From an uncultured Rhodothermales bacterium (GTDB lineage: Bacteria > Bacteroidota > Rhodothermia > Rhodothermales > CAYLXM01), in NCBI GenBank assembly GCA_964539455.1, contig CAZIIP010000001.1, forward strand, positions 104,521-151,310: 46,790 bases of DNA, read 5' to 3'. The notes beneath the pieces are model-generated. The model was not told where the DNA came from, ran no database searches, and was given only the letters and a program-made list of their open reading frames with translations. Position numbers and translations under genes: made by a program. Below, piece by piece: positions 25,584 to 46,790 of the stretch (position 1 is its first letter; every line of letters begins with the position of its first letter).

Positions 25584-26382
25584 CTTTCTCTGCCAGCCTG
25601 ATTAGCTCTTCAGCGACCGCCTTGTAGTCGGCCGCACCGTTTCCGTCAGGATCATATTCCAAAATCGTCTCCCCCACCGCGGGTGCCTCTCGAAAACGAA
25701 TCGACTTCCTTACCGGATGCGTCACTCTGTCGCCGTATCGCCCCTCCAGCACGCTCATCACATCGCGTGTAATTAACGTTTGCGATTCGCACATAGTCGG
25801 CAATAGCGCCAGAATACCCGGAGCCAGCCCCCTTGATTGCAAGGCATCTACGGATTCCTGCAACCGACCAAGACCATCCACATCCAGCATGCCCATTGCT
25901 ACCGGCACCACGATCCCACCCTTCCATCCAAACGACTTTAATTCCGTTGCCAGAACGAATGCATTCAGTGCAAGCGCGCCGAGATTTGGCGGACAATCAA
26001 TAATGATCACGTCTCTCTCCAGTGCCAAAAACTCTTTACCCCTGTCACCCAATCGGTATAGCCCGCCACTTAGATCATTTGCAGCATCCCTCTCCGCCTC
26101 AGCCAAACGGGACGTAGAAGCCACAACTGTAATATTCTCCTTCCCTCTTCCTTGCAGCTCCTCTACTACCGATTCGACCCGCGCCTTCTTGTCCATGTAC
26201 AGGGCTGCCGTCCCTCCTTCGCGCACACCGTTCATCCCAAGACTCTTTCCGATATGACCCTGCGGATCGTTGTCCAGTAACAGCACGCGCCGGCCTTTCC
26301 TCGCAAGCGCAGCACCGATTGACACGCACGATGTCGTCTTGCCGACACCCCCTTTCTGATTGGCAAATACAAATACAAACAT
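25576..26382 (-). CDS. parA: ParA-family partition ATPase (small, type Ib-like)
   Basis: Deviant Walker A NQKGGVGKTT right after the internal start at 26382 (MFVFVFANQKGGVGKTT), and Walker B VIIIDCPP. I saw no N-terminal HTH domain. Confidence 0.9.
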   Translation of the reverse strand: MFVFVFANQKGGVGKTTSCVSIGAALARKGRRVLLLDNDPQGHIGKSLGMNGVREGGTAALYMDKKARVESVVEELQGRGKENITVVASTSRLAEAERDAANDLSGGLYRLGDRGKEFLALERDVIIIDCPPNLGALALNAFVLATELKSFGWKGGIVVPVAMGMLDVDGLGRLQESVDALQSRGLAPGILALLPTMCESQTLITRDVMSVLEGRYGDRVTHPVRKSIRFREAPAVGETILEYDPDGNGAADYKAVAEELIRLAEKDG

Positions 26383-26445
26383 GCCTTTTCTTTCGGTACA
26401 ACCTCCTCTATTAGGTGCACAGATACGATCGGTACTACCGCTATT

Positions 26446-26656
26446 TACCACCATACCGATTATACCACCTATACCGCATAATACGCAAATTGACGCTTAT
26501 CTCCTCTACCACTCATAACCTTACTATTCATTATACCACTCTTATACCTATAACTATATCTACCCATGATACACATATAACTACGATGGTTCATACGATT
26601 CATACTATGAATAATAGCTATACATACTGTATGATCGGTAGTAGTACCCATACCAC
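26446..26656. repeat. Centromere-like/operator repeat region upstream of parA
   Basis: TACCAC hexamer occurs 5 times in direct orientation (26446, 26463, 26507, 26533, 26651), along with multiple (T/C)ATACC units and short dyads (TTCATACTATGAA, CATACTGTATG). The plus strand is strongly G-poor: I count 6 G in the 130 nt 26441-26570. Confidence 0.55.
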
Positions 26657-27258
26657 TACGACCATTAGCACCGAATCTCAATATCACGTGATTGGTTCTC
26701 ATTTCCGATTTAACGGAAGCGACCCTTGACATGGGTGGGAGGCTGCCTTTATTGCTTGTCGTTTGTTAGATCGAATCTCATGCATCTCTGTGCCCTGTTG
26801 TTCGTTGACATTGTCGATTCGAAGCCACTCCGTTACTTCTACTTTCACGTGTCTATTTACCAGGCCGATGCAAGACGTCTACAGGCCTGGTATGCACACT
26901 AACACATTCATACATTTCTTTCAGTTTCGCGGTGACGAACCGAGCTTGAATGATCAATGCAATCGGCGTGTATCCGAATGGAAGAACGCAGCCGACAGAA
27001 CAATCAAAAATGTCGAATGCATTCGGACCGATAAAACTGAATGTATGGAAGGTTTCTGTATTTCCTTCTGAGTTCTGAGAGGGAGGTGCATCGTGGCATT
27101 TCCGTGGTATCATCATGCGGGGAGCATATCCTATACGGTGACGACCGTTTGCGTTCAAGGCGCGTACCAGGAGGGGATCAGCATTACAGCCGAAACAGAA
27201 AGGAGTAGCAAAACCGGTTGTTCAACAAGTGGAAAAGAAACGACGACGACGAATGAAG

Positions 27259-27842
27259 GAACAGATATGTGGGGTAGTGTTTGTGTTTTTGTTTAATCAT
27301 GTTTAAAACCGTTTGGCGATTTGGTACACATTAGAATTAATAGATTTGCATTGGGTAAAGGCATAACGGTTTGGGGTGGTGGGCAAGTGTTTGTGGGGTG
27401 AAAGGCATAGAAATATGGGAGCAAAAGCACGGGTATGTGGGGAAAAAGCAAGGAAATGTGGGGTGCTCGCTTTCTGGTGAGATTCTTTAAATGATGAAAG
27501 AAGCATAGAGATGTGGGTGAATGCCATGTCTGGTTGTGTATTAAAAGCATAGAGATATGGGTGACTAAGGAGGTGGCCAACACTTTGGGCATAGAAATAT
27601 GGGTCATGTGTGTGTTTCTTCATGTTATCTTCATAAACATAGGGATGTGGGGCAGGAATGATCAATTTTTGCGGTTGAAAGGTATAGGTGCGTGGGGATT
27701 GTGTGCATAAACGGCTTCTGTCTCCACATTGAAGCATAGATGCGTGGGGAATCGTTGATGTGATGGCATAGAAACGTGGGGAGCGCATTTCATTTCCGAG
27801 TACCGTGCTGCACCACAAACACAAAGGCATAGAGATGTGGGG
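27259..27842 (+). repeat. Iteron array (14 direct 16-mers, consensus GCATAGARATGTGGGG) = plasmid-type origin
   Basis: Copies start at 27259, 27361, 27383, 27405, 27427, 27448, 27503, 27547, 27589, 27637, 27682, 27734, 27766 and 27827, all in the same orientation. Start-to-start spacings are 22, 22, 22, 21, 55, 44, 42, 48, 45, 52, 32 and 61. The array ends 73 bp before the rep start. Confidence 0.85.
27278..27350. other. AT/T-rich stretch inside the iteron region (possible DNA unwinding element)
   Basis: GTGTTTGTGTTTTTGTTTAATCATGTTTAAAACCGTTTGG...ATTAGAATTAATAGATTTGCATT, lying between the first and second iterons. Confidence 0.35.
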
Positions 27843-27914
27843 TGTTACTCCTGTGCCTAACGGCATATATTCGCGGCGAGCCGATTGAAATGATTAACCC
27901 GCAATTATACGGGC

Positions 27915-29207
27915 ATGTCTCTGCTAGTCGAGAACAGGCGCGAGCTTAAGAAGCACGTCGGTGCGGTGCACACGCATGGAAAGCTGACGTTGCTTCAACG
28001 AAAGGTGGCGAATATTCTTATTCTCAATGCTTACAATGAATTACCTACAAAGGATGAGTACCAGATAAGGATCAGGGATCTGGCAGAGATCGCGGGATTC
28101 GACAGCAAGAACATCAAGGTACTCAAGGATTCTTTGCGTGGACTCATGCGCATTGTTATAGAGTGGAATGTACTTGATGAGGCAGGAAAGGAGGAGTGGG
28201 GTGCCAGTCCTATGCTTGCCCAGGCGGTTATAAAGAAGGGCAGTTCACATTTCACCTATTCGATAAGTCCTGTGCTCAGACGGAGGTTATACTCCCCAGA
28301 AATCTATGCCCGAATCAACCTGAGCATCCAGCGACGATTCAGAAGCGGTTATGCGCTGGCACTGTATGAGAACTGTGTTCGTTTTCGCAATGTGGGTACT
28401 ACCGGATGGATAGATCTTGAGACGTGGAGGAAACTGCTCGGCGTAGAAGCCGAGCAATACGCAGCATTCAAGTCGTTTTCGCAGTGGGTGTTAAAGCCGG
28501 CCATCAAGGAGGTCAGCAAGCACTCCGATATCAAGGTTACGGTCGAATACAGGCGTAGGAAGCGCCGTGTGGTGGCCATGCGCTTTAAAATCTTGGACAA
28601 TCCGGCATTCGACGGGATTGATCGGAATGCTCTGCCGATCGCACAGAAGAAGAAGAAAGGCAACGGATCGGCCACGCTGGACATGTTTCAGCAGAGCAAT
28701 CCGCTTGCCCGCCGGCTTGGTACGTTTGGCTTGTCTGCCGTCCAGGTCAAGAGTGTGCTGGACGAGCACGATGAGTCGTACGTAAAGGAGAAACTTGATT
28801 TTGTGGAAAGCGAACTCAAGTCGGGAAGACTCATCAGGAACGTGCCGGGATTTACGCTAAAGGCGCTTGAAAAGGATTACCGGCCTCGGCAGGGCAATGT
28901 CTCGGTTGGAAAGAAAATCAAGGAAGGAGATGGTCGGGCGGCCCTCGACGCCAAGCGAATGAAACGGGCGGAGGAACGGTCACAAAGGCTGGAAGCGTTA
29001 TATGCCGGATTATCCGAGTGGGAGCGATCGAGAGTAGATGAGCGCGTGATCGCCAGGCTGCGCGAGGAAATCGGCGGTGTGGCCTGGAATGCCTATCGCA
29101 GAGCGAGTGAGGCAGGGGAGGGGGAGGATCAGATGCCTGTGATCGTCAGGGGCACTTTGCGCAGTCTCAGACTGGAAGTGGTCGAGCAAATGGAGACGGC
29201 GGTTTAA
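27915..29207 (+). CDS. Replication initiator protein (Rep_3/RepB-like, iteron-binding)
   Basis: 430 aa. The N-terminal two winged-helix-like segments are typical of Rep_3 initiators (LTLLQRKVANILILNAY...IRIRDLAEIAGF...LKDSLRGLM; FKSFSQWVLKPAIKEVSKHSDIKVTVEYRRRKRRVVAMRFKI). It sits immediately downstream of the iterons. Confidence 0.8.
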   Translation: MSLLVENRRELKKHVGAVHTHGKLTLLQRKVANILILNAYNELPTKDEYQIRIRDLAEIAGFDSKNIKVLKDSLRGLMRIVIEWNVLDEAGKEEWGASPMLAQAVIKKGSSHFTYSISPVLRRRLYSPEIYARINLSIQRRFRSGYALALYENCVRFRNVGTTGWIDLETWRKLLGVEAEQYAAFKSFSQWVLKPAIKEVSKHSDIKVTVEYRRRKRRVVAMRFKILDNPAFDGIDRNALPIAQKKKKGNGSATLDMFQQSNPLARRLGTFGLSAVQVKSVLDEHDESYVKEKLDFVESELKSGRLIRNVPGFTLKALEKDYRPRQGNVSVGKKIKEGDGRAALDAKRMKRAEERSQRLEALYAGLSEWERSRVDERVIARLREEIGGVAWNAYRRASEAGEGEDQMPVIVRGTLRSLRLEVVEQMETAV

Positions 29208-31971: not shown

Positions 31972-32034
31972 TAAAGATGGAGGATTTACCGATCCGGCAG
32001 CATTGTGTGGGCCGGGGCCTTTTCACACCAGGCT

Positions 32035-34615: not shown

Positions 34616-34649
34616 ACACATATATTAAACACATGTGTGAAATATGTGT
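34616..34649 (+). promoter_or_regulatory. Composite operator candidate upstream of imuB
   Basis: ACACAT at 34616 and 34629, and ATGTGT at 34633 and 34644 (11-bp period). The central pair forms the palindrome ACACATGTGT and the outer arms ACACATAT/ATATGTGT are complementary. Positions 34633-34647 are identical to 43505-43519. Confidence 0.6.
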
Positions 34650-34664
34650 ATCGCCTGGTTTAAT

Positions 34665-35795
34665 ATGATTGCCTGTCTTCACATAAGGGATTATCCGGCA
34701 TGGGTCATGCGGTATCGTTATCCGGATGCTGCGCTTGCGGTATTTCACCGGGGGCGTATTCTGGCCAGGAATCGGAAGGCACGGCGGAAGGTGCAAGTGG
34801 GAGAGTTGGTCGAGCGTGCACGTTCGGCGCATCCGGAGGTGCAGTTTCTGGGGCGGGACACGCATGAGGAGGAGATTCGCTGGGAGTATGTACTCGAGAA
34901 GATCAACCGGTATACGCCGCTGGTTGAATCTGCAGTGCCCGGCACGGCCTATTTCCAGCCGCTTGAGGGTCGGGTGCCGGCGCCGCCGGCACGGGAGTTG
35001 TCGGTGCGGGTTGGTGCCGGACCGTCTCGTGCAGTGGCCCGCATTGCGGCCGCCCGTACCCACGACGGGCATTTTCTCGAGATCGCCCCGCGAGGCGTGC
35101 GAACGTTTTTGCGGGCATCGCCCGTTTCGACACTCTGTGACCTGGGATTTCCGGAAGAGATGGTCGAGCGGCTGACCCTTTTCGGGCTGGACAATCTGGA
35201 GCGTATCAGGCAACTGACGCGACGACATCTGACTGCCCAGTTCGGTGCGGATGGTGAGGCGCTGCATGATTTACTGGATTTGCAGAAGACCGACCCGCCC
35301 ATTGCCGTCTACCGCCCGTCTCCAGCGATTTTATGTTTTGTGGATTTCGAGAACGACGTCATCGAGCCGGCGGATATTCTTCCCGCCCTGCAGCATCTGG
35401 TAAGTGAGGCGAGGGACGCGCTCGAGGGACTGGTGACCTCCCGCATCACCCTCGAAACAACGGGCAAAAGCGAAGGGGCAAACCGGATATGCTCGGCAGT
35501 ACTTAAATCCGGCACCTCCGATGCGGGGATCCTCTTTCGCGCGGCGGAACGAAGGCTGAAGAAAAACTGGCCACAGGCGGCGATTTCCCGGATTCGTCTC
35601 ATTCTGGGTGCACTGGGTTATGCCAGGCACCACCAGGGCGCCCTGTTCTTCCAGCGGCCGGACGTCCAGACGGCTGTTCGCCGTGTCCACCGCCGGTATC
35701 CCAATGCTCTGCTGCGTGTCGTGCCGGCAGAGCGGCGGTTGCCGCTCGAGGAGGCCGACGGGTTGTCGTTTGTGCCATACCGCTCCGCCTCATGA
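34665..35795 (+). CDS. imuB: ImuB-like Y-family polymerase homolog (catalytically inactive type)
   Basis: Start MIACLHIRDYPAW (34665; the ORF opens at 34644). Y-family-like fold without the DMDAFF acidic motif seen in dinB. It is followed by dnaE2 in the same orientation. Confidence 0.75.
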   Translation: MIACLHIRDYPAWVMRYRYPDAALAVFHRGRILARNRKARRKVQVGELVERARSAHPEVQFLGRDTHEEEIRWEYVLEKINRYTPLVESAVPGTAYFQPLEGRVPAPPARELSVRVGAGPSRAVARIAAARTHDGHFLEIAPRGVRTFLRASPVSTLCDLGFPEEMVERLTLFGLDNLERIRQLTRRHLTAQFGADGEALHDLLDLQKTDPPIAVYRPSPAILCFVDFENDVIEPADILPALQHLVSEARDALEGLVTSRITLETTGKSEGANRICSAVLKSGTSDAGILFRAAERRLKKNWPQAAISRIRLILGALGYARHHQGALFFQRPDVQTAVRRVHRRYPNALLRVVPAERRLPLEEADGLSFVPYRSAS

Positions 35796-36025
35796 AACGC
35801 ATTGATGAACCGATACGGGTACAGACGAGCGGCAAACGCATCGAAGCCGTCTACTGGCACGGCCGCCGCATTGCGGTGCACGAGCAGACGAATGCGTGGA
35901 TTGTCCGCAGCCGGTGGTGGGGAAGTGAAGAGAAACGGATTTATCGGACGCTGCAGACGGATAAAGGCCATATGGAGGTGTACCAGGTCGGTGATTTGTG
36001 GCGATTGAGCCGCCTGGCGGATTAA
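35792..36025 (+). CDS. Small Trp/Arg-rich protein embedded between imuB and dnaE2
   Basis: 77 aa. Its ATG overlaps the imuB stop (ATGA at 35792-35795) and its stop lies 2 nt before the dnaE2 ATG (36028). Sequence: IEAVYWHGRRIAVHEQTNAWIVRSRWWGSEEKRIYRTLQTDKGHMEVYQV. Confidence 0.6.
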   Translation: MKRIDEPIRVQTSGKRIEAVYWHGRRIAVHEQTNAWIVRSRWWGSEEKRIYRTLQTDKGHMEVYQVGDLWRLSRLAD

Positions 36026-36027
36026 AA

Positions 36028-39000
36028 ATGTTCACTCATCTACACGTACGAAGCTGGTTTTCGTTTTTGCGGGGTGCGTCGCCTCCCGACCAACTGGTCG
36101 AGCAGGCCGCCGCCCTGGGGATGCGTGCGCTGGCGATTACCGATATCAAGGGCATGTACGGCGTGGTGCGCCACCAGCTTGCGTGCAAGGAGCATGGACT
36201 GAAGCCGGTATTCGGCGCCGAGGTGGTGGTCGGGGGTCGGCCCCTCGTACTGCTGGCAAAAACGCGGACAGGGTATGCAAACATTTGCCGCCTTTTAACC
36301 CAGGGATTTCAGCGGACGGAGACGCCCGAGTCGGACGTACGGGTTGAAGAACTGGCTGCGGTGGGCGAGGACGTTATCTGTTTGACGGGAGGTGCGGAAG
36401 GGCTGCTGTGGGATGCGGTGCATCGCAAGGCGTATCCGAAGGCACGAAACTGGGTCGATCATCTGCGGGGAATTTTCGGTCGAAACCTGTACGTTGAGCT
36501 GACGAACCAGCTTCGTCCGGACGACCGGCGGATGGTTACGCGCATGGCGCGCTTTGCGTCCGAGTGCCGTCTGCAGGTGGTGGCGACGGGAGATGTCCGC
36601 TATGCCACACCGGAAGGGTATGCCCTCTATGATCTGATGACGTGTATTCGCACCCACCAGACAATCTTTGAGGGCCATCCGGAGCGTCCGGTAAACGACC
36701 AGGCCTTTTTGCGTCCCGAGGCGGAGCTTCGCCGGTTGATTCCGCATCCTGAAGCGTTTCGCAACGCGGAGCGGATCGAAGCATCCTGCTGCGTGGATCT
36801 CTTGCCCGAGTACATCACCCCACCCGGGGCACGCCTGCCGGCGGGCGTTTTGCCCGAGACACATTTGCGAAAACTGTGCGACGAGGGGTTAAAGACCCGC
36901 TACGCAGCCGGGGAGCGCAAACGGGCACGGGCGCAGATGGAAAGAGAGTTGAAAGTGATCTGCGGACTGGAATTGGAGGAGTTCTTTTTGGTCGTTCGCG
37001 AAGTGGTAGATGAGGCCGCCAGAAGAAACATCCGGTGTGCCGGTCGGGGATCGGCCGCCAACAGCATCGTGGCCTATCTGCTGGGCATCACCCATGTCGA
37101 TCCGATTGCTCACCGGCTTCTCTTCGAGCGCTTTCTGCATCAGGGACGAAAAGGGACGCCGGATATCGACATCGATTTCGATTCGGACCGGCGCCTGGAG
37201 ATCGTCGAGTGGATAGAGGACCGGTTCGGCGTCGAGCAGACGGCCATGTCGGCGACGCTGCAGACCTACCAGTTGCGGTCCGCCCTTCGGGATGTCGCAA
37301 AAGCCCTGGGTTATCCGGAGCAGGTGCTGCGGGCCTTCAGTACAGCTGTGCCGCATCGGCCCGCTACCCGGATCGACGAATACAGGGAGCAGGTCATCAG
37401 CATTCTCGGTGGAGAAACCCCGCTGGCCAGGGCGCTGGTCGAAGGTGTGTGGGCACTCGCCGGATGTCCACGGCACCTCGGACAGCACTCGGGGGGCATG
37501 GTGCTGTCACGCGCACACCTCCATGCGTTTACACCGGTGCAGACCTCGGCGAACGGTGTAAAGATGGTCCAGTTTGACAAACGCGACATCGAGCGGCTGG
37601 GACTGGTCAAACTCGATGTGCTGGGACTTCGTATGCTGGCGGCACTGAGCTTCGCCGAGGAGTTGATCCAGCGCACCCATCCCGAGCCGTTTAATCTCGA
37701 TAAGGTACCGCTGGACGACCGGCCGACGTTCGATATGATCCGGGCAGGGGAGACGATCGGGCTGTTTCAGATCGAATCACAGGGCCAGTTGCATTTGCTG
37801 GCGATGAACCAGCCCGAGACGTTTCAGGATTTGATCGCGGAGATCGCGCTGTTTCGTCCGGGGCCCGTTCAGGGCGGCATGGTTCGTCCCTTCGTGCGGA
37901 GAAGAAAAGGGCAGGAGCGGGTGCAGTTTCAGGATCCGTCGCTGGAACCGATTCTGAAGGACACCTATGGGATTATCCTGTTTCAGGAACAGGTGCTGGA
38001 GGTCGCTCACAAATTCGCCGGCATGAGCCTGCAGGAAGCGGACGATTTCAGGGCGCTGATGTCGAAGTTTCGGGATCCGGGTCAAATGGAATCGATGCGC
38101 ACGGTGTTCGTCAACGGCGCCATGCGGCGCGGTGTATCGGAGAAGGTAGCCCAGGAAGTGTTCGAAAAGGTCTCGAAGTTCGTCGGCTACGGCTTTTGCC
38201 GAAGCCATGCCGCAGCATTCGCCAAAACCGTCTTCCAGTCCGCTTATCTGAAGAAGCACTTTCCTGCCGCCTACATGGCGGCGGTTATGCAGCACATGCC
38301 CGGCATGTATCCGGTCATGACCCTCGAACAGGAGGCAAAACGGCTGGGTGTGCAGGTGTTGTCGCCCGACGTCAACCACAGCGGGATCCTGTATGATCTA
38401 GAGCACCGGGGATATGGCGTGTATGCGATTCGCAAGCCGCTGACGTCGATCAAGGCGGTTTCATTGGAATCGGCGCGGACCATCTTTTTGGAGCGCCTGA
38501 AGGGGCCGTTCAAAGATGTCGAGGACTTTTACCGGCGCTGTGCGGTGGACAAGGATGCCATGGAAAACATCGCCCGGTCGGGTGCGCTGGACGAACTGAC
38601 ACACGGCAGCAGGAAGGCGCTCTGGGAAGTGGGCGTTCTGCACCGAAGACTGGGCACAGCCGGCCGAATAGATCCGCAACAGCACCTTTTCAGCATGCAG
38701 GCACTAGAAGCGGTCGATCTGCCTGCGCTGGCGGAGCTGGGAATCGACGAGCGGCTGAGCTGGGACTATCAGACGCATGGTGCGGCGCGACATCATCCCA
38801 TGACCGTTGTCCGGCGCCAGCTGAATGAACTGGAAGTCCGTCCGGTCAGCGTCTGTTACCAGTACGCACAACCCGCACTGCGTGGCAAGGCGCCCGTGAT
38901 CCAGACGGCCGGCATCGTCATCCTGCGCCAGCGACCGCCGACGGCAAAGGGATTCATGTTCATCACCCTGGAAGACGAGACGGGTTTTATTCAGTGTGTC

Positions 39001-39216
39001 GTCAATCCGCAGGCACAGGATCTTTACGGTCACATGCTCAACAGCGCCGCCCTGATCGTTCAGGGCGAACTGCAGTCCGAGAAAAACTGGCGCGGCATCA
39101 TCCTGCAGCAGGCCTGGCGACTGGATGCCGTTTTTGGCGGATACAAAGGACATGCAAGCTACAGTGGCGGTAGAGACAGGCACGTTGTGTCGACTGCCGA
39201 CGCAGTCAATTCATGA
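36028..39216 (+). CDS. dnaE2: Error-prone DNA polymerase III alpha homolog DnaE2 (ImuC)
   Basis: About 1062 aa from MFTHLHVRSWFSFLRGAS (PHP domain). Pol III alpha core motifs and an OB-fold C-terminus. It lies in a cassette with imuB. Confidence 0.92.
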   Translation: MFTHLHVRSWFSFLRGASPPDQLVEQAAALGMRALAITDIKGMYGVVRHQLACKEHGLKPVFGAEVVVGGRPLVLLAKTRTGYANICRLLTQGFQRTETPESDVRVEELAAVGEDVICLTGGAEGLLWDAVHRKAYPKARNWVDHLRGIFGRNLYVELTNQLRPDDRRMVTRMARFASECRLQVVATGDVRYATPEGYALYDLMTCIRTHQTIFEGHPERPVNDQAFLRPEAELRRLIPHPEAFRNAERIEASCCVDLLPEYITPPGARLPAGVLPETHLRKLCDEGLKTRYAAGERKRARAQMERELKVICGLELEEFFLVVREVVDEAARRNIRCAGRGSAANSIVAYLLGITHVDPIAHRLLFERFLHQGRKGTPDIDIDFDSDRRLEIVEWIEDRFGVEQTAMSATLQTYQLRSALRDVAKALGYPEQVLRAFSTAVPHRPATRIDEYREQVISILGGETPLARALVEGVWALAGCPRHLGQHSGGMVLSRAHLHAFTPVQTSANGVKMVQFDKRDIERLGLVKLDVLGLRMLAALSFAEELIQRTHPEPFNLDKVPLDDRPTFDMIRAGETIGLFQIESQGQLHLLAMNQPETFQDLIAEIALFRPGPVQGGMVRPFVRRRKGQERVQFQDPSLEPILKDTYGIILFQEQVLEVAHKFAGMSLQEADDFRALMSKFRDPGQMESMRTVFVNGAMRRGVSEKVAQEVFEKVSKFVGYGFCRSHAAAFAKTVFQSAYLKKHFPAAYMAAVMQHMPGMYPVMTLEQEAKRLGVQVLSPDVNHSGILYDLEHRGYGVYAIRKPLTSIKAVSLESARTIFLERLKGPFKDVEDFYRRCAVDKDAMENIARSGALDELTHGSRKALWEVGVLHRRLGTAGRIDPQQHLFSMQALEAVDLPALAELGIDERLSWDYQTHGAARHHPMTVVRRQLNELEVRPVSVCYQYAQPALRGKAPVIQTAGIVILRQRPPTAKGFMFITLEDETGFIQCVVNPQAQDLYGHMLNSAALIVQGELQSEKNWRGIILQQAWRLDAVFGGYKGHASYSGGRDRHVVSTADAVNS

Positions 39217-39516
39217 ACCATGAATTGAACCCGCACTACCCGCTTCAACGATCGACTCACCCGCAACCACAAAGATCTTGTCTCCCGGCGCAGGGGTGAA
39301 GCGTCTGTTTCCGGTAAACGTTCCGAAAGCGGGGAAAATGGCGCGCCGCTCTCCCATCACGAAACAGGGGAGACGAAGACGCTGCTGCGCGCCTCCGGAG
39401 AATGAGATGCCGGCGTGGATATGACCGGAGATGACGTAGCCCGGTGGGAGATTGTCTGTATCAACAGCCGAACACTGCCTTTTCTGAAAAGTGCCGCGTT
39501 GCTCACTGTACGTCAT
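39211..39516 (-). pseudogene. C-terminal remnant of a PdeM-like (ligase-associated) metallophosphoesterase
   Basis: SGHIHAGISFSGGAQQRLRLPCFVMGERRAIFPAFGTFTGN matches my recollection of the C-terminal part of PdeM-type phosphoesterases. The N-terminal metal-binding motifs (DxH, GDxxH, GNHD) are absent. The only ATG (39516) overlaps the last codons of the Prim-Pol gene. Confidence 0.4.
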
Positions 39517-41014
39517 TTCCGGGGAAAAGCGGCATCTGGTCCTCCGATGTTGAAGCGCCCTCCCCGTCCGGTTCACTTCCGGATGTAAGGGCGGAGCCCT
39601 GTGCATCCTGAAACAGGCCGGGCTGATCGAAGCGGTATTCGAATCCGTGCCGTTGCAGTACGATCAATGATTTTCGCGGAGTCTCATCAAACCGGCTCTT
39701 GGTCAGCAGTACGCGTTCCCGCGTATGGTCACCAACCTGCTCCAGATGCACCTTAATGTCGACAAATGGATCGAGGGGTGTATCCGGAATGCGCCCTTGT
39801 GAGGTATTGTCGGAAGGGAGATCCCACACGGCAAAGAGGCCGACGCCTCGCAAAATGGCTTTCAGCAGAGGCTGCATGACGTAGTCCGCATCTACCTGCC
39901 GGGAGCCGTCCATCACCTCGCGTCCGGCGAAAGCATTCAGCCGGTCGATAACAATCAGGCGTGCCTTTACGGTAGTGCAGCGATCCACTGCGGCCGCGAT
40001 CAGCTTTGGCCAGGACACATCCAGTGACTCCTGATAGTGAAGCACGTGAAGCCTGTTGAGAAACAGATGGTTGTAGCCGCGGGCCAGAATGGCCCTGCCC
40101 AGGGACGCCGGCGATTCCGACGTGAGAAGCACGACACTTCCCTGAACGGATCTGCGCGTCAGGAATTCGGAGCCCTCCAGCACTGAGCGGATGAGATGAA
40201 GCGCGAAGGTGGTTCTCCCGCTGCCTTTTTCCGTTCCGTGCAGCAAGGTAATTGCCTGGGTAGCCGCCCAGGGTTCATTGATCCATATGCTCGAATTGTC
40301 CGCCGCCACGTCGAATCCCGTGCGGAACGGCAAATCCGGCATTTCCTCGCCCATTTCTGTCTGGGCTTTGTTCTCCGTGCGGGTACGAACGCGCAAATTG
40401 CATCTTCGGAGAATCCATCCGGGGACGGGCGCAACGGAGGTCTGCCGGATGGTCGCACCTGGGTCCCACGAGCTCTCTTCCCAGCGATCCCCGTACAGGT
40501 GAACGGACGGTGGTGCGAAAACCACTTCTCCTTCTCCCAGAAGCGTAATGCCGGGTGCGATAGGTGTCGAACCGGCCGGCATTGCTGATGGATCGGCCGA
40601 AAACAGGTGGACAAGCCGGTCGGAGGACGCCAGGATGGTTGGCGTCTTCGGAAGCATCCCGTGCATGATCTCGAGTTCGTTGGCGCTCGCCAAACCGTCT
40701 CGTCCGTCTATCAGCAGCGCGACCAGGCGTGCATCGGCGCCCAGCGCCATACCAATGCGTGCATGGGGGTGGGTTTGCCACCAGCGCTCTATGTGATCGC
40801 GGTTGGAGGTGGCCCTGTCGATTCCAAAGTATTGACAGCGTGTGGAGGGCTGCCGGCAGTCGGCATTCGAGAGTTCACAAATGCATTCTCCGGCACGTCT
40901 CCTGCCTCTGCGGACGGACGGCAGCGGCAGGACAGGATATCCGAGTTCCGCAATTTCCAGTGCCGCCCGTCTCAGTCGCTCTCCAACTCTGTCGGTTCGT
41001 CCGTTTTCAGCCAT
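39503..41014 (-). CDS. Bifunctional Prim-Pol (archaeo-eukaryotic primase-like) / RecA-like AAA_25 ATPase fusion
   Basis: 503 aa. The N-terminal Prim-Pol-like region has ELGYPVLPLP, ERWW, IGMALG, LLIDGRDG, LVHLF and VVFAPPSVH. The C-terminal P-loop domain has LLHGTEKGSGRTTFALHLI and Walker B RLIVIDRLNAF. Confidence 0.75.
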   Translation of the reverse strand: MAENGRTDRVGERLRRAALEIAELGYPVLPLPSVRRGRRRAGECICELSNADCRQPSTRCQYFGIDRATSNRDHIERWWQTHPHARIGMALGADARLVALLIDGRDGLASANELEIMHGMLPKTPTILASSDRLVHLFSADPSAMPAGSTPIAPGITLLGEGEVVFAPPSVHLYGDRWEESSWDPGATIRQTSVAPVPGWILRRCNLRVRTRTENKAQTEMGEEMPDLPFRTGFDVAADNSSIWINEPWAATQAITLLHGTEKGSGRTTFALHLIRSVLEGSEFLTRRSVQGSVVLLTSESPASLGRAILARGYNHLFLNRLHVLHYQESLDVSWPKLIAAAVDRCTTVKARLIVIDRLNAFAGREVMDGSRQVDADYVMQPLLKAILRGVGLFAVWDLPSDNTSQGRIPDTPLDPFVDIKVHLEQVGDHTRERVLLTKSRFDETPRKSLIVLQRHGFEYRFDQPGLFQDAQGSALTSGSEPDGEGASTSEDQMPLFPGNDVQ

Positions 41015-41221
41015 GCCGCTCGTCTCGTTTTCGTTTCCGGCTCATCCGGCAACGTTTTCGAGGTGCATTTGCATGCGCATGATCCATTGCTCGGGTGACT
41101 TCAAACTTAAGCCTTCCCGTAGCCTTTCCGCCAGCAATGGGAAACAAAAAGGTGCCGGCTGCAGCCGTTCCACAAGCAAATCGTCTGCTCCCGGTATGCA
41201 AAACCATTCACGCTGACGCGC

Positions 41222-41593
41222 TCAATAGTTCACGCCCGTGTTTTCTTCCGGCGCGTTGTCGTGTGTATCATCCGACGTCTTGGGCATGAGGCTGTTGCTG
41301 ACAGCGTAGTAGCATGCGATGTAGTAGATCTCCATCTCGCCGCGCGTTTCCACCCGCTCGATGTGGACGATATTGAAGCGGGCGTCGGGAAAACGTTCCC
41401 CGAGGACCTTCGTCAGATCGTCTCGAACACGTCCCGGTGTCCGCGGCACTACCGACTGCTCGATTGAACATCGAAAGCTGCCCTCGATGCGCAGAATGGA
41501 GAGGCCGCGAAGGTCGAGCCACTCCCGTAGCGGGGTCTCTTGGTCGACGAACTGAAACGGCCATTCCTGAAACTCGACGATCTGCTTTGCCAT
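41222..41593 (-). CDS. Hypothetical protein (123 aa) between dnaA and the Prim-Pol gene
   Basis: The start is set at MAKQIVEFQEW (41593). It follows the dnaA terminator. I recognised no family. Confidence 0.45.
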   Translation of the reverse strand: MAKQIVEFQEWPFQFVDQETPLREWLDLRGLSILRIEGSFRCSIEQSVVPRTPGRVRDDLTKVLGERFPDARFNIVHIERVETRGEMEIYYIACYYAVSNSLMPKTSDDTHDNAPEENTGVNY

Positions 41594-41638
41594 CGTTCCT
41601 CGTTGAGATATTGGCGGTTGGGAGAGGGAAGGTCGGGG

Positions 41639-41666
41639 AAAATACAAAAAGCGCCCGAGAGGACGC
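41639..41666 (-). terminator. Rho-independent terminator after dnaA
   Basis: On the minus strand, GCGTCC-TCTC-GGGCGC (one G-U pair) is followed by TTTTTGTATTTT. It begins 35 nt after the dnaA stop. Confidence 0.6.
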
Positions 41667-41700
41667 CTTTGCAACCTGCAGCATCAAACCTGTGGACCGC

Positions 41701-43176
41701 CTACATGGCGCCGAGTTTCTGCAAGAGTTCCTCCACGAGATCATCGAGATCATCGTCGACATCCCGGAGGTTTTCGATCGATTGGACGCCGTGCATGACC
41801 GAAGAGTGGTCGCGCCCGTCAAAGAATGCGGCGATCTTCGTATAGGTATCATATGACACGACCCGGGCCAGATACATGGCGATATGGCGGGCCTGCACGT
41901 GTGGTCGCTTGCGGCTGCGGCCACGCATCACATCGACAGGCACCTGGGTCTGCTCGCTGACCAAACGCGCGATGTCCTTCAAATGAATGGCCCCGAGTGC
42001 TTCGCCCGTAACTTCCGCAATCAGTGTGCCAATAGCAGGTACTTCAAATCCGAATTTGCTCTCCGCCAGCAGCCGGTTGAGAATGCCTTCGATCTGCCTG
42101 ACGCTTCCCCGTGTGCGCGCAATCGTGTCGATCGTCTCGGCGTCCAGATCGAGATCCAACTCGGAAGCCCGCTGTTCTACAATTTGCCGGCGTGTGTCAA
42201 ATCCGGGAGGCGACAGTTCAGCCATTACACCTCCTTGAAATCTGGAGACCAGGGATGTGTTGAGTCCCGGAATCCTGGTTGGTTGTTGGTCGAAGGAGAG
42301 TACAACTTGCTTGTTCTCGTATATCAGGCTGTTGAAAACGACAGCGAACTGGTCCTGGATTTTCTGCGTGCGCCCCAGAAACTGAACGTCGTCGACGATG
42401 AGCAGGTCCAGATGCGCGAAAGACTTTACGAAAGAATGCGCTGACTTTCCTTTAAGAGAACTAACAAATGATGAAGCAAACCTCTCGGTAGTGAGGTACC
42501 GGACCGATCTGTTTTGGCTGTAGGCCATCTGCCCGATGGCCTGCAACAGATGCGTTTTACCGACACCCGAAGTTCCGTAAATAATGAGCGGATTGAACGT
42601 GTGCGCGTCGCGTGCACTTACCAGCATCTTGCCTATGCCGGCAGCAACCTGGTTGCAACGGCCTTCAACGAAACGCTCGAACGAATACTGACGCTGAAGA
42701 CCGATCTCCGCCTGTGCCTGAATGCGCGAAGCGGTCTTGGCAACGGCCACCTCCCGTCCGTTACTTGTGCCGTTCTCCCTGGAAAGTCCGACCGACCGTA
42801 ATTCATGGTTAATCGGACGCGTTCGGGCGGCAACCGCACCATCGCCGGTATTCGTGGTCCTTTCCTCCTCAACAAATCCGATGCGTACCGGGTGGCCCAG
42901 CACAGAAGCCGAGGCGGATGCAATATCCACACGGCGCTTCAAATAATCGCGGTGAAACCGGTTGGGGACGACCAGTTTGAAGACCTCGTGATCGAGCGAA
43001 CGCGCTATAACCGGCTCAATCCAGGTATTGAACTCCACTTCAGTGAGCTGGTCCTTGAGGACCTTCTTGCACTCCCGCCAGGCTTGTTCAGGGTTGAGAG
43101 ACAGGTTGTTTGTAGCAGGTGCGGGAACGGTCATTAAGGTTGGTGCTAAAGGGCGTTTCGCAAGGGCAATTTCCAA
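41701..43176 (-). CDS. dnaA: Chromosomal replication initiator protein DnaA
   Basis: 491 aa. AAA+ Walker A GTSGVGKTHLL, and a domain IV DNA-binding signature (RQIAMYLARVV-like HIAMYLARVVS, DHSSVMHGVQSI). Confidence 0.96.
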   Translation of the reverse strand: MEIALAKRPLAPTLMTVPAPATNNLSLNPEQAWRECKKVLKDQLTEVEFNTWIEPVIARSLDHEVFKLVVPNRFHRDYLKRRVDIASASASVLGHPVRIGFVEEERTTNTGDGAVAARTRPINHELRSVGLSRENGTSNGREVAVAKTASRIQAQAEIGLQRQYSFERFVEGRCNQVAAGIGKMLVSARDAHTFNPLIIYGTSGVGKTHLLQAIGQMAYSQNRSVRYLTTERFASSFVSSLKGKSAHSFVKSFAHLDLLIVDDVQFLGRTQKIQDQFAVVFNSLIYENKQVVLSFDQQPTRIPGLNTSLVSRFQGGVMAELSPPGFDTRRQIVEQRASELDLDLDAETIDTIARTRGSVRQIEGILNRLLAESKFGFEVPAIGTLIAEVTGEALGAIHLKDIARLVSEQTQVPVDVMRGRSRKRPHVQARHIAMYLARVVSYDTYTKIAAFFDGRDHSSVMHGVQSIENLRDVDDDLDDLVEELLQKLGAM

Positions 43177-43234
43177 TATCTATTTCGGCGTTCAGATTAG
43201 AAACTCTGGTCGATTCGAGGCAACCTAAATCTGA

Positions 43235-43404
43235 GACTAGTTGTTCACAGAACCACTAGTCCGTCAACAGGCTTATCCACGACCCGCCCAACAGGTTAAA
43301 TTGCCATGTTTCGGTAGCGTTAAAGGAATGTTGCCGAAACGTAACCAACCGGTGCAATACCATAAGAGTTTGATAATATGTCTTTTAACAGTATGCTATC
43401 CACA
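43235..43404. promoter_or_regulatory. DnaA-box cluster / dnaA promoter or oriC-like region
   Basis: TTATCCACG (43273-43281) and CTATCCACA (43396-43404) each have one mismatch to TTATCCACA. TTGTTCACA (43241-43249) lies in the loop of the hairpin GACTAGT/ACTAGTC (43235-43261). A second hairpin, GTTTCGG...CCGAAAC, spans about 43308-43340. An AT-rich stretch covers 43361-43395. Confidence 0.45.
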
Positions 43405-43504
43405 ACTTCCACAGTGTTGACAACGGAGATACCCACGTACAGGGGTTTCCCAACAATTTGTAAACACTCCCCCGGCCCCGAGCGTTAAGAGTGTCTTTTT
43501 CAAT

Positions 43505-43519
43505 ATGTGTGAAATATGT
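43505..43519 (+). promoter_or_regulatory. Operator candidate upstream of dinB (15-mer identical to the imuB site)
   Basis: ATGTGTGAAATATGT ends 12 nt before the dinB ATG. The identical 15-mer ends 17 nt before the imuB ATG, in the same orientation relative to the gene. Confidence 0.6.
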
Positions 43520-43530
43520 AATTTGACGAC

Positions 43531-44586
43531 ATGGAGCGCCGCATCATCCATGTTGACATGGACGCATTCTTCGCGTCCGTCGAGCAAAGGGACCGGGGTC
43601 TTCGGGGCAGCCCGGTGGCGGTCGGAGGTGTGCGGGGCAGGGGAGTGGTCGCGGCGGCGAGTTATGAGGCGCGTGTGTTTGGAATTCATTCGGCGATGTC
43701 GATGCGGGAGGCTCTTCGTAGCTGCCCGGATCTGATTGTCGTACCCACGCGGCATGAGCACTATCGCGAAGAGTCGGAGCGGATTCGGGCGATCATGCAC
43801 ACGTTCACCGATGTTGTTCAACCACTCTCTATTGACGAGGCGTATCTGGATGTGACCGGTTGTCTTGATGCGTATGGCACCGCGACCGAAGTGGCGATCA
43901 ATCTCAAACGCCGCATACGCGAGGAGACCGATCTGACGGCGTCGGCCGGGGTAGGTCCTAACAAAACGGCGGCCAAGATTGCCTCGGCGTATCGTAAGCC
44001 GGACGGATTGACGGTTGTGCATCCCTCGAGGCTCGAGGAGTTCTATGCGCAGTTGGATATCGAGAAATTCCCGGGAATCGGCGCTGCCACGGCCAAGCGG
44101 ATGCATGCATTGAGCATCCGGACGGGTGCGGATCTCAGAAAGCAGTCGCGTGTCCTTTTAAGACAGAAATTCGGGAAATCGGGAGAGTGGTTTTACCGGA
44201 TGATTCGAGGAGATGACGATCGTCCCGTCTCGGTCAACCGAAAGCGGAAATCCGTGTCGGTGGAGCGAACCTATTTCGACGGACTACGAACGCGCGAAGC
44301 GGTAGAGGAAGCCTTGGCCTCGATCGCCGGACGGGTCATCCGCCGACTGAAGAAAGCGGGCGTCACGGGACGAACGGTAGTGTTGAAGGTCCGTTTTTCG
44401 GACTTCAGCCAGTTTACACGCAGTCTAACGCTGGACCATGCGTGCAACGGAACCGATGAATTGATCCGTGTGGTGATGCACCTGGCCCGCCAAATCGACA
44501 ATGGGCGTCCCGTCAGGCTCCTTGGCGTAGGAGTCTCCAACCTTGTGCCCTCCGATGTGGCACAGACGGAATTATCGCTCGAATGA
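43531..44586 (+). CDS. dinB: DNA polymerase IV
   Basis: 351 aa. IIHVDMDAFFASVEQRD and SIDEAYLDVT catalytic motifs, with a little-finger domain. Confidence 0.95.
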   Translation: MERRIIHVDMDAFFASVEQRDRGLRGSPVAVGGVRGRGVVAAASYEARVFGIHSAMSMREALRSCPDLIVVPTRHEHYREESERIRAIMHTFTDVVQPLSIDEAYLDVTGCLDAYGTATEVAINLKRRIREETDLTASAGVGPNKTAAKIASAYRKPDGLTVVHPSRLEEFYAQLDIEKFPGIGAATAKRMHALSIRTGADLRKQSRVLLRQKFGKSGEWFYRMIRGDDDRPVSVNRKRKSVSVERTYFDGLRTREAVEEALASIAGRVIRRLKKAGVTGRTVVLKVRFSDFSQFTRSLTLDHACNGTDELIRVVMHLARQIDNGRPVRLLGVGVSNLVPSDVAQTELSLE

Positions 44587-44610: not shown

Positions 44611-45636
44611 CTACAACAAGCCTTTTCGCTCGGCTACATCGAAAAACCGTCTGGCAATTTCCGCCGTCAATGCCGGTGCATTTCCCCAGGCGCGGTTGTT
44701 GACCAGTATGTTCAACACCTGACCGGCTTCGATGGCTTTGAATATCAGTGCATTTGAATCGTCGATCATGCGGTTGGCCGATGCATGGTCGACCAGTTCG
44801 GGGGCCGGTTTGTCGAACGGATGGGCATGCGCGTAGGCCCTGGCATACGGCATACGCAAGGGGGTAAGCAGCCGCACCACACCTTGTCCATCCGTTGCAG
44901 GGAATCCCTCAACGTGTTCCCATTGGCGTTTCAGCGGCGGGAGCCAGGTCCAGTGGCTGTAAACGAAGCCGAGTCCACGATCTTTTAACCACGCAACATA
45001 TTCCGGCGTGATGAGGTGAGGAGATCGTAGTTCAAGATGCATCTGCGGGCTGTCCGGTAGTTGCCTGAAAAAGGAGTCCAGCGTGGCGATGTTTTCCTCG
45101 TTGGAGGGGCTGTCGGATTTTCGCTGATATTCCTGCTCGAATATTACACCGGCCAGGCGATTTCCCAGGATATCCCGGCAAGGCTTGAGGAAGCGCTCGA
45201 TGAAACCATCGAAATGCAGATACGAGTCGTTTTCTTCGTAGCTCTGTGTCGTACGAATTCTGCGTGCGGCATAGGCCTGTGGGGCCTTTAGAAAAAAGCG
45301 GGCGGAGTCCGGACTGTGTTCGGCGTATCGCCGGAGAACGAAATAGTTATTGGTCGGCTCGCCTTCACGGTTCAGGAGCGTGCGGTAGAAGGTGAAGTCG
45401 ATTTCCAGGCAACCAAAGTGTTCGAAGTAATCGGCGACGGACGTGACGGGGACCGTTTCTTCACGGTACGACTTGCCGCCCAGTTTCCTTGATCTCGAAT
45501 TGATTTTATAAGTGTTTTCCGGATAGATTTGGCCGATCCAGCCGGCATATCTGTCGCTTGTGGTGCCAAACCGGAGGCAAGGATGGACATGGCGAAAATC
45601 GTATTTCTCCAGGTCGGGCATGGTGCGCCTTTTCAC
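44611..45636 (-). CDS. DUF72 (YecE-like, TIM-barrel) family protein
   Basis: 341 aa. The segments LRFGTTSDRYAGWIGQIYP and FEHFGCLEIDFTFY are typical of DUF72. Its ATG directly abuts the lexA-like stop codon (45637-45639). Confidence 0.7.
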   Translation of the reverse strand: MKRRTMPDLEKYDFRHVHPCLRFGTTSDRYAGWIGQIYPENTYKINSRSRKLGGKSYREETVPVTSVADYFEHFGCLEIDFTFYRTLLNREGEPTNNYFVLRRYAEHSPDSARFFLKAPQAYAARRIRTTQSYEENDSYLHFDGFIERFLKPCRDILGNRLAGVIFEQEYQRKSDSPSNEENIATLDSFFRQLPDSPQMHLELRSPHLITPEYVAWLKDRGLGFVYSHWTWLPPLKRQWEHVEGFPATDGQGVVRLLTPLRMPYARAYAHAHPFDKPAPELVDHASANRMIDDSNALIFKAIEAGQVLNILVNNRAWGNAPALTAEIARRFFDVAERKGLL

Positions 45637-46269
45637 TTAACGAATGGCGCGAATGACGGCCCTAACCATGCCGACGACCTCGAGATCCTTACTCTGATCG
45701 GCAAGCTCGATGCGGTAGCCGGGCTGATCGGCCGTGAGTCGAATCAGGTTGTTGGATCGTACAAGTCGGCGTACGATCATCATACCGCTTGTAAGTGCGA
45801 CGGCAATGGCATTGCCGGGAATTTTCGCAAGCTGCCGTTCTTCCGTGACAACGAGATCACCCGACCGGATGCCGGCGGTTCCCATGCCGTCATCACCCGC
45901 AACGACGACCAGGCAATTGTCGGCATCTACGCGTCCCAGGATCGAGCGATCGATCGCCAGCACACCGGAGGCGCCGGCCCGCAGTCCGGCGCGGTCGAGT
46001 CCGGCTGCAGAAGAAACAAACGGAAGATGTGCCGGGAGTTCGTGGGCATGCTCGCTTTCGATCAGATGGATAGAACGCGCTCTGCCCTTCTGCCTGCGAA
46101 GGTATCCCTTTCGCTGCATCGCATCCAGTTGTTTGACCACGCCGTTGGTCGAGCTAATACCGACGGCCGCACCAATCTCTTTTACGGACGGCGCACAGCC
46201 GTGCGCATGGACAAATCCGCTGATCGCATCAAATATCTCCTGTTGCCTGTCTGTAAGCGGAACGCGCAT
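45637..46269 (-). CDS. lexA: LexA-family repressor homolog with substituted Ser/Lys catalytic dyad
   Basis: 210 aa from MRVPLTDRQQEIFDAI (ATG 46269). LexA winged-helix N-domain (APSVKEIGAAVGISSTNGVVKQLDAMQRKGYLRR) and an Ala-Gly site (SSAAGL). The S24 domain reads VAGDDGMGTAGIRSGDLVV and MIVRRL where canonical LexA has GDSM/GMSM and VKRL. I checked both segments against the DNA. Confidence 0.8.
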   Translation of the reverse strand: MRVPLTDRQQEIFDAISGFVHAHGCAPSVKEIGAAVGISSTNGVVKQLDAMQRKGYLRRQKGRARSIHLIESEHAHELPAHLPFVSSAAGLDRAGLRAGASGVLAIDRSILGRVDADNCLVVVAGDDGMGTAGIRSGDLVVTEERQLAKIPGNAIAVALTSGMMIVRRLVRSNNLIRLTADQPGYRIELADQSKDLEVVGMVRAVIRAIR

Positions 46270-46477
46270 GGAATGAATCAGGAAAACCGCACGGAAGGCG
46301 GATTGGTCGACACAAAAACATACCGGATTCGCCGTCGCAATGCCACCCGGAACGTCGCGGTAGAATCCCGGTGTGAAAAGAAAATTCCGGTTGATCGCGA
46401 TCCCGGTAATACGGACTTTGCATCTACTCCGGCACGCCGGTATCGATCCGGTACAATTGCAGCCAGCAGGACCGACC

Positions 46478-46790
46478 ATGTCGCTTATTCTACCCTTCAA
46501 GTCGAAAAAACTGGCCCGCGTCAAGACGAGCAGACGCCAGAAGCTCGAAGAATACGGACAGTTGAATCTGTTTGCCGGCGCGCCTGCAAAAGTCTATCAA
46601 CTGCCCTCCCATCTGCCCGCTTTCCTAACGGCGACCCTGCTGCATGAAAGGGGTGCTCCGGGTGCCCATGCTGCGTACGAACGAGCCATCCAGGAAGGAG
46701 ACCACGTAGACGACGCCTATGTAAATCTCGGCGTAATGGCCTATGAAGCCGATCGCGTCGATGAGGCCTTCACGTGTTTTCGTGAATGCC
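46478..46790 (+). CDS. TPR-like protein, 5' partial (runs off the window)
   Basis: Reading frame open from ATG 46478 to the window end (104 codons). It contains a TPR-like segment, AYVNLGVMAYEADRVDEAFTCFRE, and is divergent from lexA. It is not in the supplied ORF track because it has no stop in the window. Confidence 0.5.
   Translation, partial: MSLILPFKSKKLARVKTSRRQKLEEYGQLNLFAGAPAKVYQLPSHLPAFLTATLLHERGAPGAHAAYERAIQEGDHVDDAYVNLGVMAYEADRVDEAFTCFREC

Follow-up and report, generated by a model that had tools for sequence, protein, structure and literature searches.

A LexA-family protein with a replaced Ser/Lys dyad in an uncultured Rhodothermales bacterium, and its probable membership of a distinct, non-self-cleaving branch of the family

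The 46,790-nucleotide stretch of an uncultured Rhodothermales bacterium analysed here (contig CAZIIP010000001.1, positions 104,521 to 151,310; hereafter the window) carries near its end a minus-strand lexA-like gene, whose 210-residue product starts with MRVPLTDRQQEIF. A longer, TTG-initiated frame is also open for this gene, and the extension is not kept in orthologs. The original prediction, made from the DNA letters, described the product as a LexA homolog that keeps the DNA-binding domain and the Ala-Gly cleavage site but has lost both residues of the Ser/Lys catalytic dyad. The gene is followed by a DUF72 gene and lies divergent from a gene for a tetratricopeptide repeat (TPR) protein; dinB and the imuB-dnaE2 mutagenesis cassette are found within ~1-11 kb (Table 1).

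Table 1. Features of the lexA-like gene, its surroundings and the polymerase genes (window coordinates), with related loci in other genomes
Feature	Position	Strand	Basis or remark
lexA-like gene, 210 aa: LexA winged helix and S24-like domain without Ser/Lys dyad	45637..46269	-	Pfam, phmmer, AlphaFold2, Foldseek
LexA-type DNA-binding domain, residues 4-65; recognition helix ISSTNGVVKQLDAM	46075..46260	-	PF01726, 73.4 bits; TM 0.88 to 1lea
S24-like C-terminal domain, residues 88-202; protease activity predicted absent	45664..46008	-	PF00717, 38.9 bits
Ala89-Gly90 dipeptide, supposed cleavage site; one residue out of register, not conserved in orthologs	46000..46005	-	phmmer, MAFFT, orthologs
Asp126-Asp127-Gly128 (codons gatgacggc); Gly128 in the column of nucleophile Ser119	45886..45894	-	phmmer, MAFFT, codon reading
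Arg167 (codon cgc), in the column of general base Lys156	45769..45771	-	phmmer, MAFFT, codon reading
DUF72 gene, probable operon partner, 15 nt past the lexA-like stop	44611..45621	-	PF01904, 68.9 bits
208-bp region shared by the lexA-like and TPR genes, presumed two-way promoter and operator; contains GGTGTGAAAAG at 46369-46379	46270..46477	.	
Divergent TPR gene, 5' part	46478..46790	+	gene calls, Pfam
imuB, 77-aa open reading frame and dnaE2 (mutagenesis cassette)	34644..39216	+	
Two overlapping TATGT-N6-TATGT boxes at the imuB start; probably operator of another, canonical LexA	34618..34647	.	
dinB (Pol IV)	43531..44586	+	
TATGTGTGAAATATGT box, 12 nt upstream of the dinB ATG; 15-mer identical to the imuB box	43504..43519	+	
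DD-type loci beside the dcw cluster	L162-L204, L230, L054		Rhodothermales, Kryptoniota and Kapabacteria genomes

Both domains of a LexA are recognised in the product by Pfam, LexA_DNA_bind (PF01726) with 73.4 bits against a cut-off of 23.7 and Peptidase_S24 (PF00717) with 38.9 bits against a cut-off of 23.3; the same S24 profile scores 111.6 bits in the canonical LexA of a related lineage against 38.9 bits here. The NCBIfam LexA equivalog TIGR00498 gives 104 bits, slightly below its cut-off of 110.95. An AlphaFold2 model computed from a 41-sequence alignment has a mean predicted local distance difference test score (pLDDT) of 93.9 and is uncertain solely at the inter-domain linker, the loop that matches the cleavage region being modelled at a pLDDT of ~95. 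Foldseek searches initiated with this model against the PDB return LexA structures as top matches, full-length LexA with an E-value of 1.7e-15. The N-terminal domain of LexA (PDB identifier 1lea) superimposes with a root-mean-square deviation (rmsd) of 1.3 Å at the TM-score listed in Table 1, and LexA C-terminal domains match with TM-scores of 0.76-0.87 and rmsd values of 1.9-2.8 Å.

The protease site is another matter. With the E. coli LexA structures 1jhf, 1jhh and 7b5g as references, phmmer places Gly128 under Ser119, with a one-residue insertion just ahead of it (AGDDGMG against SGM-SMK), and Arg167 under Lys156 (IVRRL against TVKRL), and a MAFFT alignment of 163 LexA-family proteins puts both residues in the identical columns. 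Scored at the dyad columns, the protein thus has Gly and Arg, and neither Ser nor Lys, which bears out the description of a LexA homolog with a DNA-binding domain and without both dyad residues. The two peptides quoted in the original prediction, LVVVAGDDGMGTAGIRSGDLVV and GMMIVRRLV, are both found in the protein; the Ser position, which had been left as Gly or Asp depending on a one-residue gap, is Gly in the alignments, with the insertion just before it. The motifs DDGMG and (I/V)RRL recur in all three of the close homologs, so that the same substitutions are seen in orthologs. As for the Ala-Gly site said to be kept, the dipeptide itself is present, but it is out of register and not conserved: both phmmer and MAFFT align A84-G85 of E. 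coli LexA with G90-L91 and not with A89-G90, and the AAG of the window protein reads AGG, GGG and TDG in its three orthologs, where Gly90 and Leu91 are invariant. Neither the alignments nor the three orthologs give any sign of selection to retain A89-G90 as a cleavage site. The protein hence departs from canonical LexA in the Ser, the Lys, a conserved Ala-Gly and the equivalog score, and agrees with it in the fold of both domains. Because both dyad residues are replaced, classical RecA-stimulated self-cleavage appears very unlikely, as the prediction had also held, and we regard the protein with considerable confidence as a non-self-cleaving member of the branch described below, here called the DD type.

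Close homologs of the window protein are few. Among 5.8 billion clustered proteins there are only three, at 77, 69 and 52% identity, and 58% of the positions are invariant among these orthologs. In the JGI (Joint Genome Institute) metagenomes, further members of this window clade were limited to near-identical copies of P0004 alongside unrelated matches to the DNA-binding domain only, and none was found in species-representative genomes. An exhaustive HMMER search with a profile of the clade yields one 50%-identity cluster for it, after which the score falls from 406 to 150 bits. In many representatives beyond this drop, GDSM is replaced by DDG(M/L) or, less frequently, by DDA or DDT, and Lys156 by Arg; many of them read S..PE.LR.RP in the Ala-Gly region. 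The alignable top matches comprise 60 proteins with Arg and Gly/Ala at the dyad columns and 59-60 canonical ones. In an alignment of 41 DD-type members with a mean identity of 34%, six columns are invariant, Asp126 and Arg167 among them, and Gly128 and Cys119 are conserved in at least 90% of the members. The STNGV.K recognition helix is common to the window protein and its DD-type homologs, and the window clade shares 27-38% identity with other DD-type proteins.

The placement of the window clade was assessed with neighbour-joining trees in which the dyad and cleavage-site columns had been masked, as a guard against bias from the shared motifs. The split around the window clade contains 57 of the 60 DD-type sequences and zero canonical ones, and 173 of 200 bootstraps nest the window clade within a group made up purely of DD-type sequences. 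The window sequence used singly scores up to 116 bits against DD-type proteins and up to 93 bits against canonical proteins. Judged by these alignments, the DD type is a distinct and old LexA branch, in which GDSM...K is replaced by a conserved DDG(M/L)...R and the Ala-Gly loop by another conserved sequence. Since the masked tree and the single-sequence scores both group the window protein with the DD type, the dyad loss is, on the same footing, inherited from a common ancestor and not private to the window genome. To speak of the dyad as 'lost' is correct insofar as both residues are replaced, yet it understates the case, as Asp126, Gly128 and Arg167 vary little or not at all throughout a large, old family. 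Invariant and near-invariant replacement residues therefore point to a changed function of the site and not to decay, and the S24 fold of the DD type is probably kept as a dimerisation and regulatory scaffold. We found no description of the DD-type family in open-access papers or on bioRxiv.

A scan of species-representative genomes, with a three-sequence alignment as the query, identified DD-type carriers in Rhodothermales, Salinibacter, Salinivenus, Rubricoccaceae, Kryptoniota, Ignavibacteria, Kapabacteria and metagenome-assembled genomes (MAGs) labelled Bacteroidota. The DD-type gene and mraZ-rsmH-ftsL-ftsI-murE-mraY, the dcw cluster of division and cell-wall genes, point away from each other at 36 of 40 loci. 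Just upstream of the Rhodothermales DD-type gene lie paired GTGAAAAYRTTTTCAC palindromes 32 nt apart, at least two copies being present in 15 of 23 loci, and none occurs elsewhere in these Rhodothermales loci; such twin palindromes have the look of an autoregulated dimeric repressor in Rhodothermales. Further elements of these loci are GTGGGGAA repeats close to mraZ, the palindrome ATGTGCACAT and the conserved sequence CACACATATG. In one MAG, JAJZNW01, a DD-type gene beside the dcw cluster (L185) coexists with a canonical LexA that has ITAG, GLSM and VKRF (L209), the two contigs being of equal GC content. Thus, the DD type can be a second LexA-family protein and not a replacement. The canonical lexA promoters seen in these lineages carry TAGTAGA-N6-TCTACTA (L209) and GGTAGT-N6-ACTACC (L078); that of L070 shows GGTAGT-N6-ACT, the readout ending mid-motif.

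The window is chromosomal, as indicated by uvrB, two genes of the gyrA/parC type, polA, nth and dnaA. Its GyrA shares 68% identity with the Roseithermus (Rhodothermales) protein, by which the organism is probably a member of the FCB group distantly related to Rhodothermota. The locus recurs in the Logan sample SRR7048221. The lexA-like gene does not share the dcw context of the DD type, its neighbours being the TPR gene and the DUF72 gene. A gene is also found at the DUF72-equivalent position on the contig of the 77% ortholog. DUF72 is a TIM barrel related to UV-damage endonuclease and is enriched near translesion-polymerase operons and lexA (PMC11791011). The TPR gene is divergent from the lexA-like gene on all four window-clade contigs and is followed, past the end of the window, by genes for a YgjP-like HExxH hydrolase and then an ExoX-like DEDD exonuclease; the hydrolase gene comes after the TPR gene on both contigs that are long enough. 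The hydrolase of the window organism has an intact HELAH motif, scores 145 bits against PF01863 and gives weak WLM and SprT-like matches. Its identity as an ImmA/IrrE protein (COG2856) was considered and rejected, as it matches the YgjP-like family and gives no match to ImmA/IrrE. The theme of the window-clade neighbourhood is DNA damage.

The polymerase genes carry operator-like boxes of their own. The 14-mer ATGTGTGAAATATG, which extends to a 15-mer, has exactly two copies in the window, at 34633-34646 (the imuB start) and at 43505-43518, the latter beginning 26 nt upstream of the dinB start codon; both copies are free of mismatches, compared with a random expectation of 2.8 when up to three mismatches are allowed. 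When one mismatch at most is allowed, TATGT-N6-TATGT is matched at five places in the window where 0.8 would be expected; among them are a second copy at imuB, in inverted orientation, and a site at 16929-16944, in the upstream region of genes for DUF2461 (TIGR02453) and DUF2652. The start codon annotated for imuB falls within its box; the true start may be the in-frame ATG at 34665. The architecture of the imuB and dinB boxes is that of the Balneolaeota LexA box TTACACATATTTTWTACATA; gel-shift experiments showed that purified Balneola vulgaris LexA binds this box at SOS promoters, among them the polymerase IV and V promoters (Kilic et al. 2020, PMC7739468). A genome scan for the Balneolaeota box finds it at many Balneolales loci and, in L309, directly upstream of lexA, and the dinB box equals the L309 lexA-promoter box at 14 of 18 positions. 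The LexA proteins of L309 and B. vulgaris (P0206) have the full cleavage apparatus (IAAG, GFSM, LKK), and their recognition helix is SPNSVTQNIQAL, as against STNGVVKQLDAM in the window protein. A search for distant relatives of Balneola LexA in high-GC organisms yielded a list full of close Balneolaceae proteins and confirmed the B. vulgaris LexA as canonical. In an unclassified MAG, a Balneola-type box lies directly upstream of a umuD-like S24 gene (L319:5234-5706), as would be expected if the box were a mark of SOS genes outside Balneolales as well. Given that its layout matches the Balneolaeota LexA box, TATGT-N6-TATGT is probably the SOS box of the window organism.

No Balneola-type box was found in the promoter of the lexA-like gene (46256-46500), where the best score is 5.2 against 17.7-20.2 for the four window sites; the scoring used a rough matrix built from these four sites, whose registers are imperfectly aligned. 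Since the polymerase boxes are of the Balneola type, the Balneola LexA has the full dyad and the lexA-like promoter is without a box, a separate, cleavable LexA is the likelier controller of the polymerases. Thus, imuB-dnaE2 and dinB are most likely under a canonical, Balneola-like LexA encoded outside the window. The original prediction had linked the lexA-like protein to these polymerases on the condition that it controls them, in which case their induction would need another mechanism; on the same three grounds this link is probably wrong.

We therefore lean, with some reserve, towards an explanation in which the lexA-like protein is a non-cleaving local repressor of its own damage-repair operons, while the polymerases are under a separate canonical LexA. 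In this arrangement, the protein would bind the 208-bp region shared with the divergent gene set and would control two operons, its own, in which the lexA-like gene is joined by DUF72, and the divergent one, which encodes the TPR protein, the YgjP-like HExxH hydrolase and the ExoX-like exonuclease, and a second, canonical LexA outside the window would control imuB-dnaE2 and dinB via the TATGT-N6-TATGT boxes. Derepression would take place without RecA-stimulated self-cleavage, speculatively through a partner (the TPR protein or the metallohydrolase), a separate protease or a change in abundance. The proposed regulon and the two-repressor arrangement as such are held tentatively, and taken as specifics they fall a little short of an even call.

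Several observations weigh against this explanation. The second canonical LexA of the window organism is deduced, the window itself holding no other LexA or S24 gene, and the absence of self-cleavage is likewise read from the protein's sequence. It is a single MAG that shows the two types side by side, and chimeric assembly can occur in MAGs. No direct evidence connects the repressor with the TPR protein or with the YgjP-like one, and the latter lies outside the ImmA/IrrE family. No operator is definable for the window clade, as the three distinct upstream regions (those of the window, L242 and L243) share no clear motif or inverted repeat, and the Rhodothermales GTGAAAAYRTTTTCAC operator is absent from the window, where the one match at three mismatches is intragenic and at chance level. 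Moreover, the 8-mer GTGTGAAA is common to the imuB box, the dinB box and the lexA-like promoter, where it takes the form GGTGTGAAAAG. It has six occurrences in the window against 1.4 expected and contains GTGAAA, which belongs to the half-site (GTGAAAA) of the operator found with Rhodothermales DD-type genes; on this evidence, the imuB and dinB boxes could still be recognised by the window protein. The GGTGTGAAAAG motif is also seen at 32018-32028 on the minus strand, ~150 nt upstream of a gamma-glutamyltranspeptidase gene, and GGTGTGAAAAC at 10775-10785, 14 nt upstream of a hoxF-like gene. No extended similarity was found around the three GGTGTGAAAA(G/C) sites, and the GGTGTGAAAAG/GGTGTGAAAAC sites may represent half-sites of the DD-type protein or may match by chance.

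The shared 8-mer lends itself to a reading in which the lexA-like protein itself represses imuB-dnaE2 and dinB through TATGT-N6-TATGT, with induction by an anti-repressor, an external protease or dilution. The proximity of these genes within a DNA-damage gene cluster, the window's lack of any other LexA and the likeness of the STNGV.K recognition helix to that of the DD-type proteins, whose half-site contributes GTGAAA to GTGTGAAA, speak for it; yet its own promoter is without a full box, which is unusual for a LexA-type regulon, the box matches that of a dyad-bearing Balneola LexA with the different helix SPNSVTQNIQAL, and DD-type and canonical LexA can share a genome. We consider this reading rather unlikely, though it is the chief alternative. 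It is improbable that the protein is a regulator of non-damage processes in the manner of the Synechocystis LexA, its repair-gene neighbours being incidental and the family's link being with cell division: the divergence from mraZ/dcw at most DD-type loci, the documented Synechocystis precedent and the presence, upstream of the hoxF-like hydrogenase gene, of a motif resembling the one in the lexA-like promoter are in its favour, but the window clade lies outside the dcw context, on all four contigs among damage-related neighbours (DUF72, the YgjP/WLM-like hydrolase and the ExoX-like exonuclease), and the short motif matches are weak.

Two further readings concern the S24 domain. Asp126, Arg167 and Cys119 are invariant or nearly so, showing selection on the site, and the cleavage-region loop is confidently modelled, and one might suppose that the domain still cleaves itself or another protein via the conserved Asp-Asp and Arg, or via Cys119. 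The scissile Ala-Gly is not conserved, however, an Asp-Arg pair is more simply a structural salt bridge filling the former active site, and S24 members that function in the absence of the Ser/Lys pair are not known to us, so that such alternative chemistry seems very improbable. The sub-threshold TIGR00498 score and the low S24 score could be taken to mark a decaying pseudogene or functionless remnant. The intact frame, the 58% invariant positions among orthologs at 52-77% identity, the conservation of the wider family over several phyla and the confident model speak so plainly to the contrary that we give this idea almost no credence and have rejected it. The explanation of a non-cleaving local repressor beside a separate canonical LexA accordingly remains the one we favour overall.

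A comparison with known regulators helps to place the protein. Canonical LexA (E. coli type; TIGR00498; MEROPS S24) shares with it the two-domain layout, a similar length and the framework motifs LT.RQ, the VDP-like region, GI..GD and the C-terminal G..R; the window protein differs in having Gly for Ser and Arg for Lys, no conserved Ala-Gly, a score below the equivalog cut-off and a promoter of its own without an SOS box. Other DD-type proteins share with the window clade DDG(M/L)...R, the STNGV.K helix and an ancestry that persists with the motifs masked, whereas the window clade has TPR/YgjP-like and DUF72 neighbours instead of mraZ/dcw and lacks the twin GTGAAAAYRTTTTCAC palindromes. The Balneolaeota LexA belongs to organisms of related lineages and has the box layout found at imuB and dinB here, but its Ala-Gly, Ser and Lys are retained and its recognition helix differs; it probably offers a model of a second LexA in the window organism and not of the lexA-like protein.

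Non-cleaving LexA homologs had been noted as having a cyanobacterial precedent, and this precedent is real: in the LexA of Synechocystis sp. PCC 6803, Ala-Gly has become Gly-Gly and Ser has become Asp (PMC3091678). Like the lexA-like protein, Synechocystis LexA has kept DNA binding and lacks the self-cleavage residues, and its action is presumed to lie outside the classical SOS switch (PMC3091678, PMC4759255). In its mode of working, the window protein resembles this LexA most. The window protein differs in the exchange of Ser for Gly and of Lys for Arg with an added Asp-Asp, and in its gene neighbourhood. The Synechocystis change is a departure among otherwise canonical cyanobacterial LexA proteins (PMC3091678), unlike the DD-type replacement, which marks a whole multi-phylum family. 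The 'non-canonical LexA' of Bacteroidetes, which keeps the dyad and has a CI-type N-terminal domain (PMC8565304), is a different thing from the DD type. The lexA-like protein also resembles phage-type repressors that need an external factor. In the ImmR/ImmA pair of ICEBs1 and the DdrO/IrrE pair of Deinococcus, the repressor is switched off by a dedicated metalloprotease. These systems resemble the window locus in having a non-self-cleaving repressor beside a HExxH hydrolase gene in a DNA-damage setting, and differ from it in that the hydrolase here is YgjP-like and not of the ImmA/IrrE family and the repressor has a LexA and not an Xre fold.

The remainder of the window deserves brief mention. 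The mutagenesis cassette contains a 77-aa open reading frame (35792-36025) without a Pfam match and no recognisable imuA. Genes of DNA metabolism are unusually concentrated in the window, which also has uvrB, nth, an Exo_endo_phos nuclease gene and polA; the two GyrA/ParC-family genes lie at 4584-6917 and 19727-22282. A NiFe hydrogenase cluster (10244-15235) includes the NuoF/HoxF-like gene and a large subunit; the hox genes are regulated by LexA in Synechocystis. A low-GC stretch at 25576-29207 holds genes for a ParA-like ATPase and a Rep3-type plasmid initiator, the GC content being 0.47 at 26-28 kb against ~0.56 elsewhere in the window, and may be an integrated plasmid-like element beside polA. 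Between the cassette and dinB, the region 39503-43530 has a PrimPol-AAA_25 primase/helicase-like gene, a 123-aa open reading frame without a Pfam match and a full-length dnaA. The AT-rich dnaA-dinB intergenic region contains two near-consensus DnaA boxes (43273 and 43396) and may be a replication origin; over the window as a whole, DnaA boxes are not enriched (5 seen, 6.9 expected). A scan for sigma-70 promoters and terminators gave counts not above the shuffled expectation, with models that are probably not applicable to this lineage.

A dyad loss in a LexA homolog has precedent; what specialists would find surprising is how broad the family is, together with its invariant replacements, its dcw linkage and the probable arrangement of two repressors. 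Annotation is affected in the first place: DD-type proteins are likely named 'LexA repressor' or 'S24 family peptidase', as the JGI names the 77% ortholog, and such names lead to regulon predictions that wrongly assume RecA-dependent induction. In a wider and distinctly speculative view, which we think possible but doubtful, an old second LexA branch with a non-cleaving Asp-Asp...Arg site, extending over Rhodothermota, Kryptoniota, Ignavibacteria, Kapabacteria and the window lineage, would run a RecA-independent damage or division circuit beside a cleavable LexA and be switched by a partner or an external protease, the candidate partners in the window clade being the TPR protein and the YgjP-like metallohydrolase. 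If true, this would be a two-repressor SOS design not described before. The questions of which signal releases the repressor and of whether, in some bacteria, the damage response is divided between cleavable and non-cleavable LexA proteins become testable. The conserved Asp/Arg branch shows the LexA scaffold reused, in several phyla and often beside the cell-division cluster, as what is predicted to be a non-cleaving repressor.

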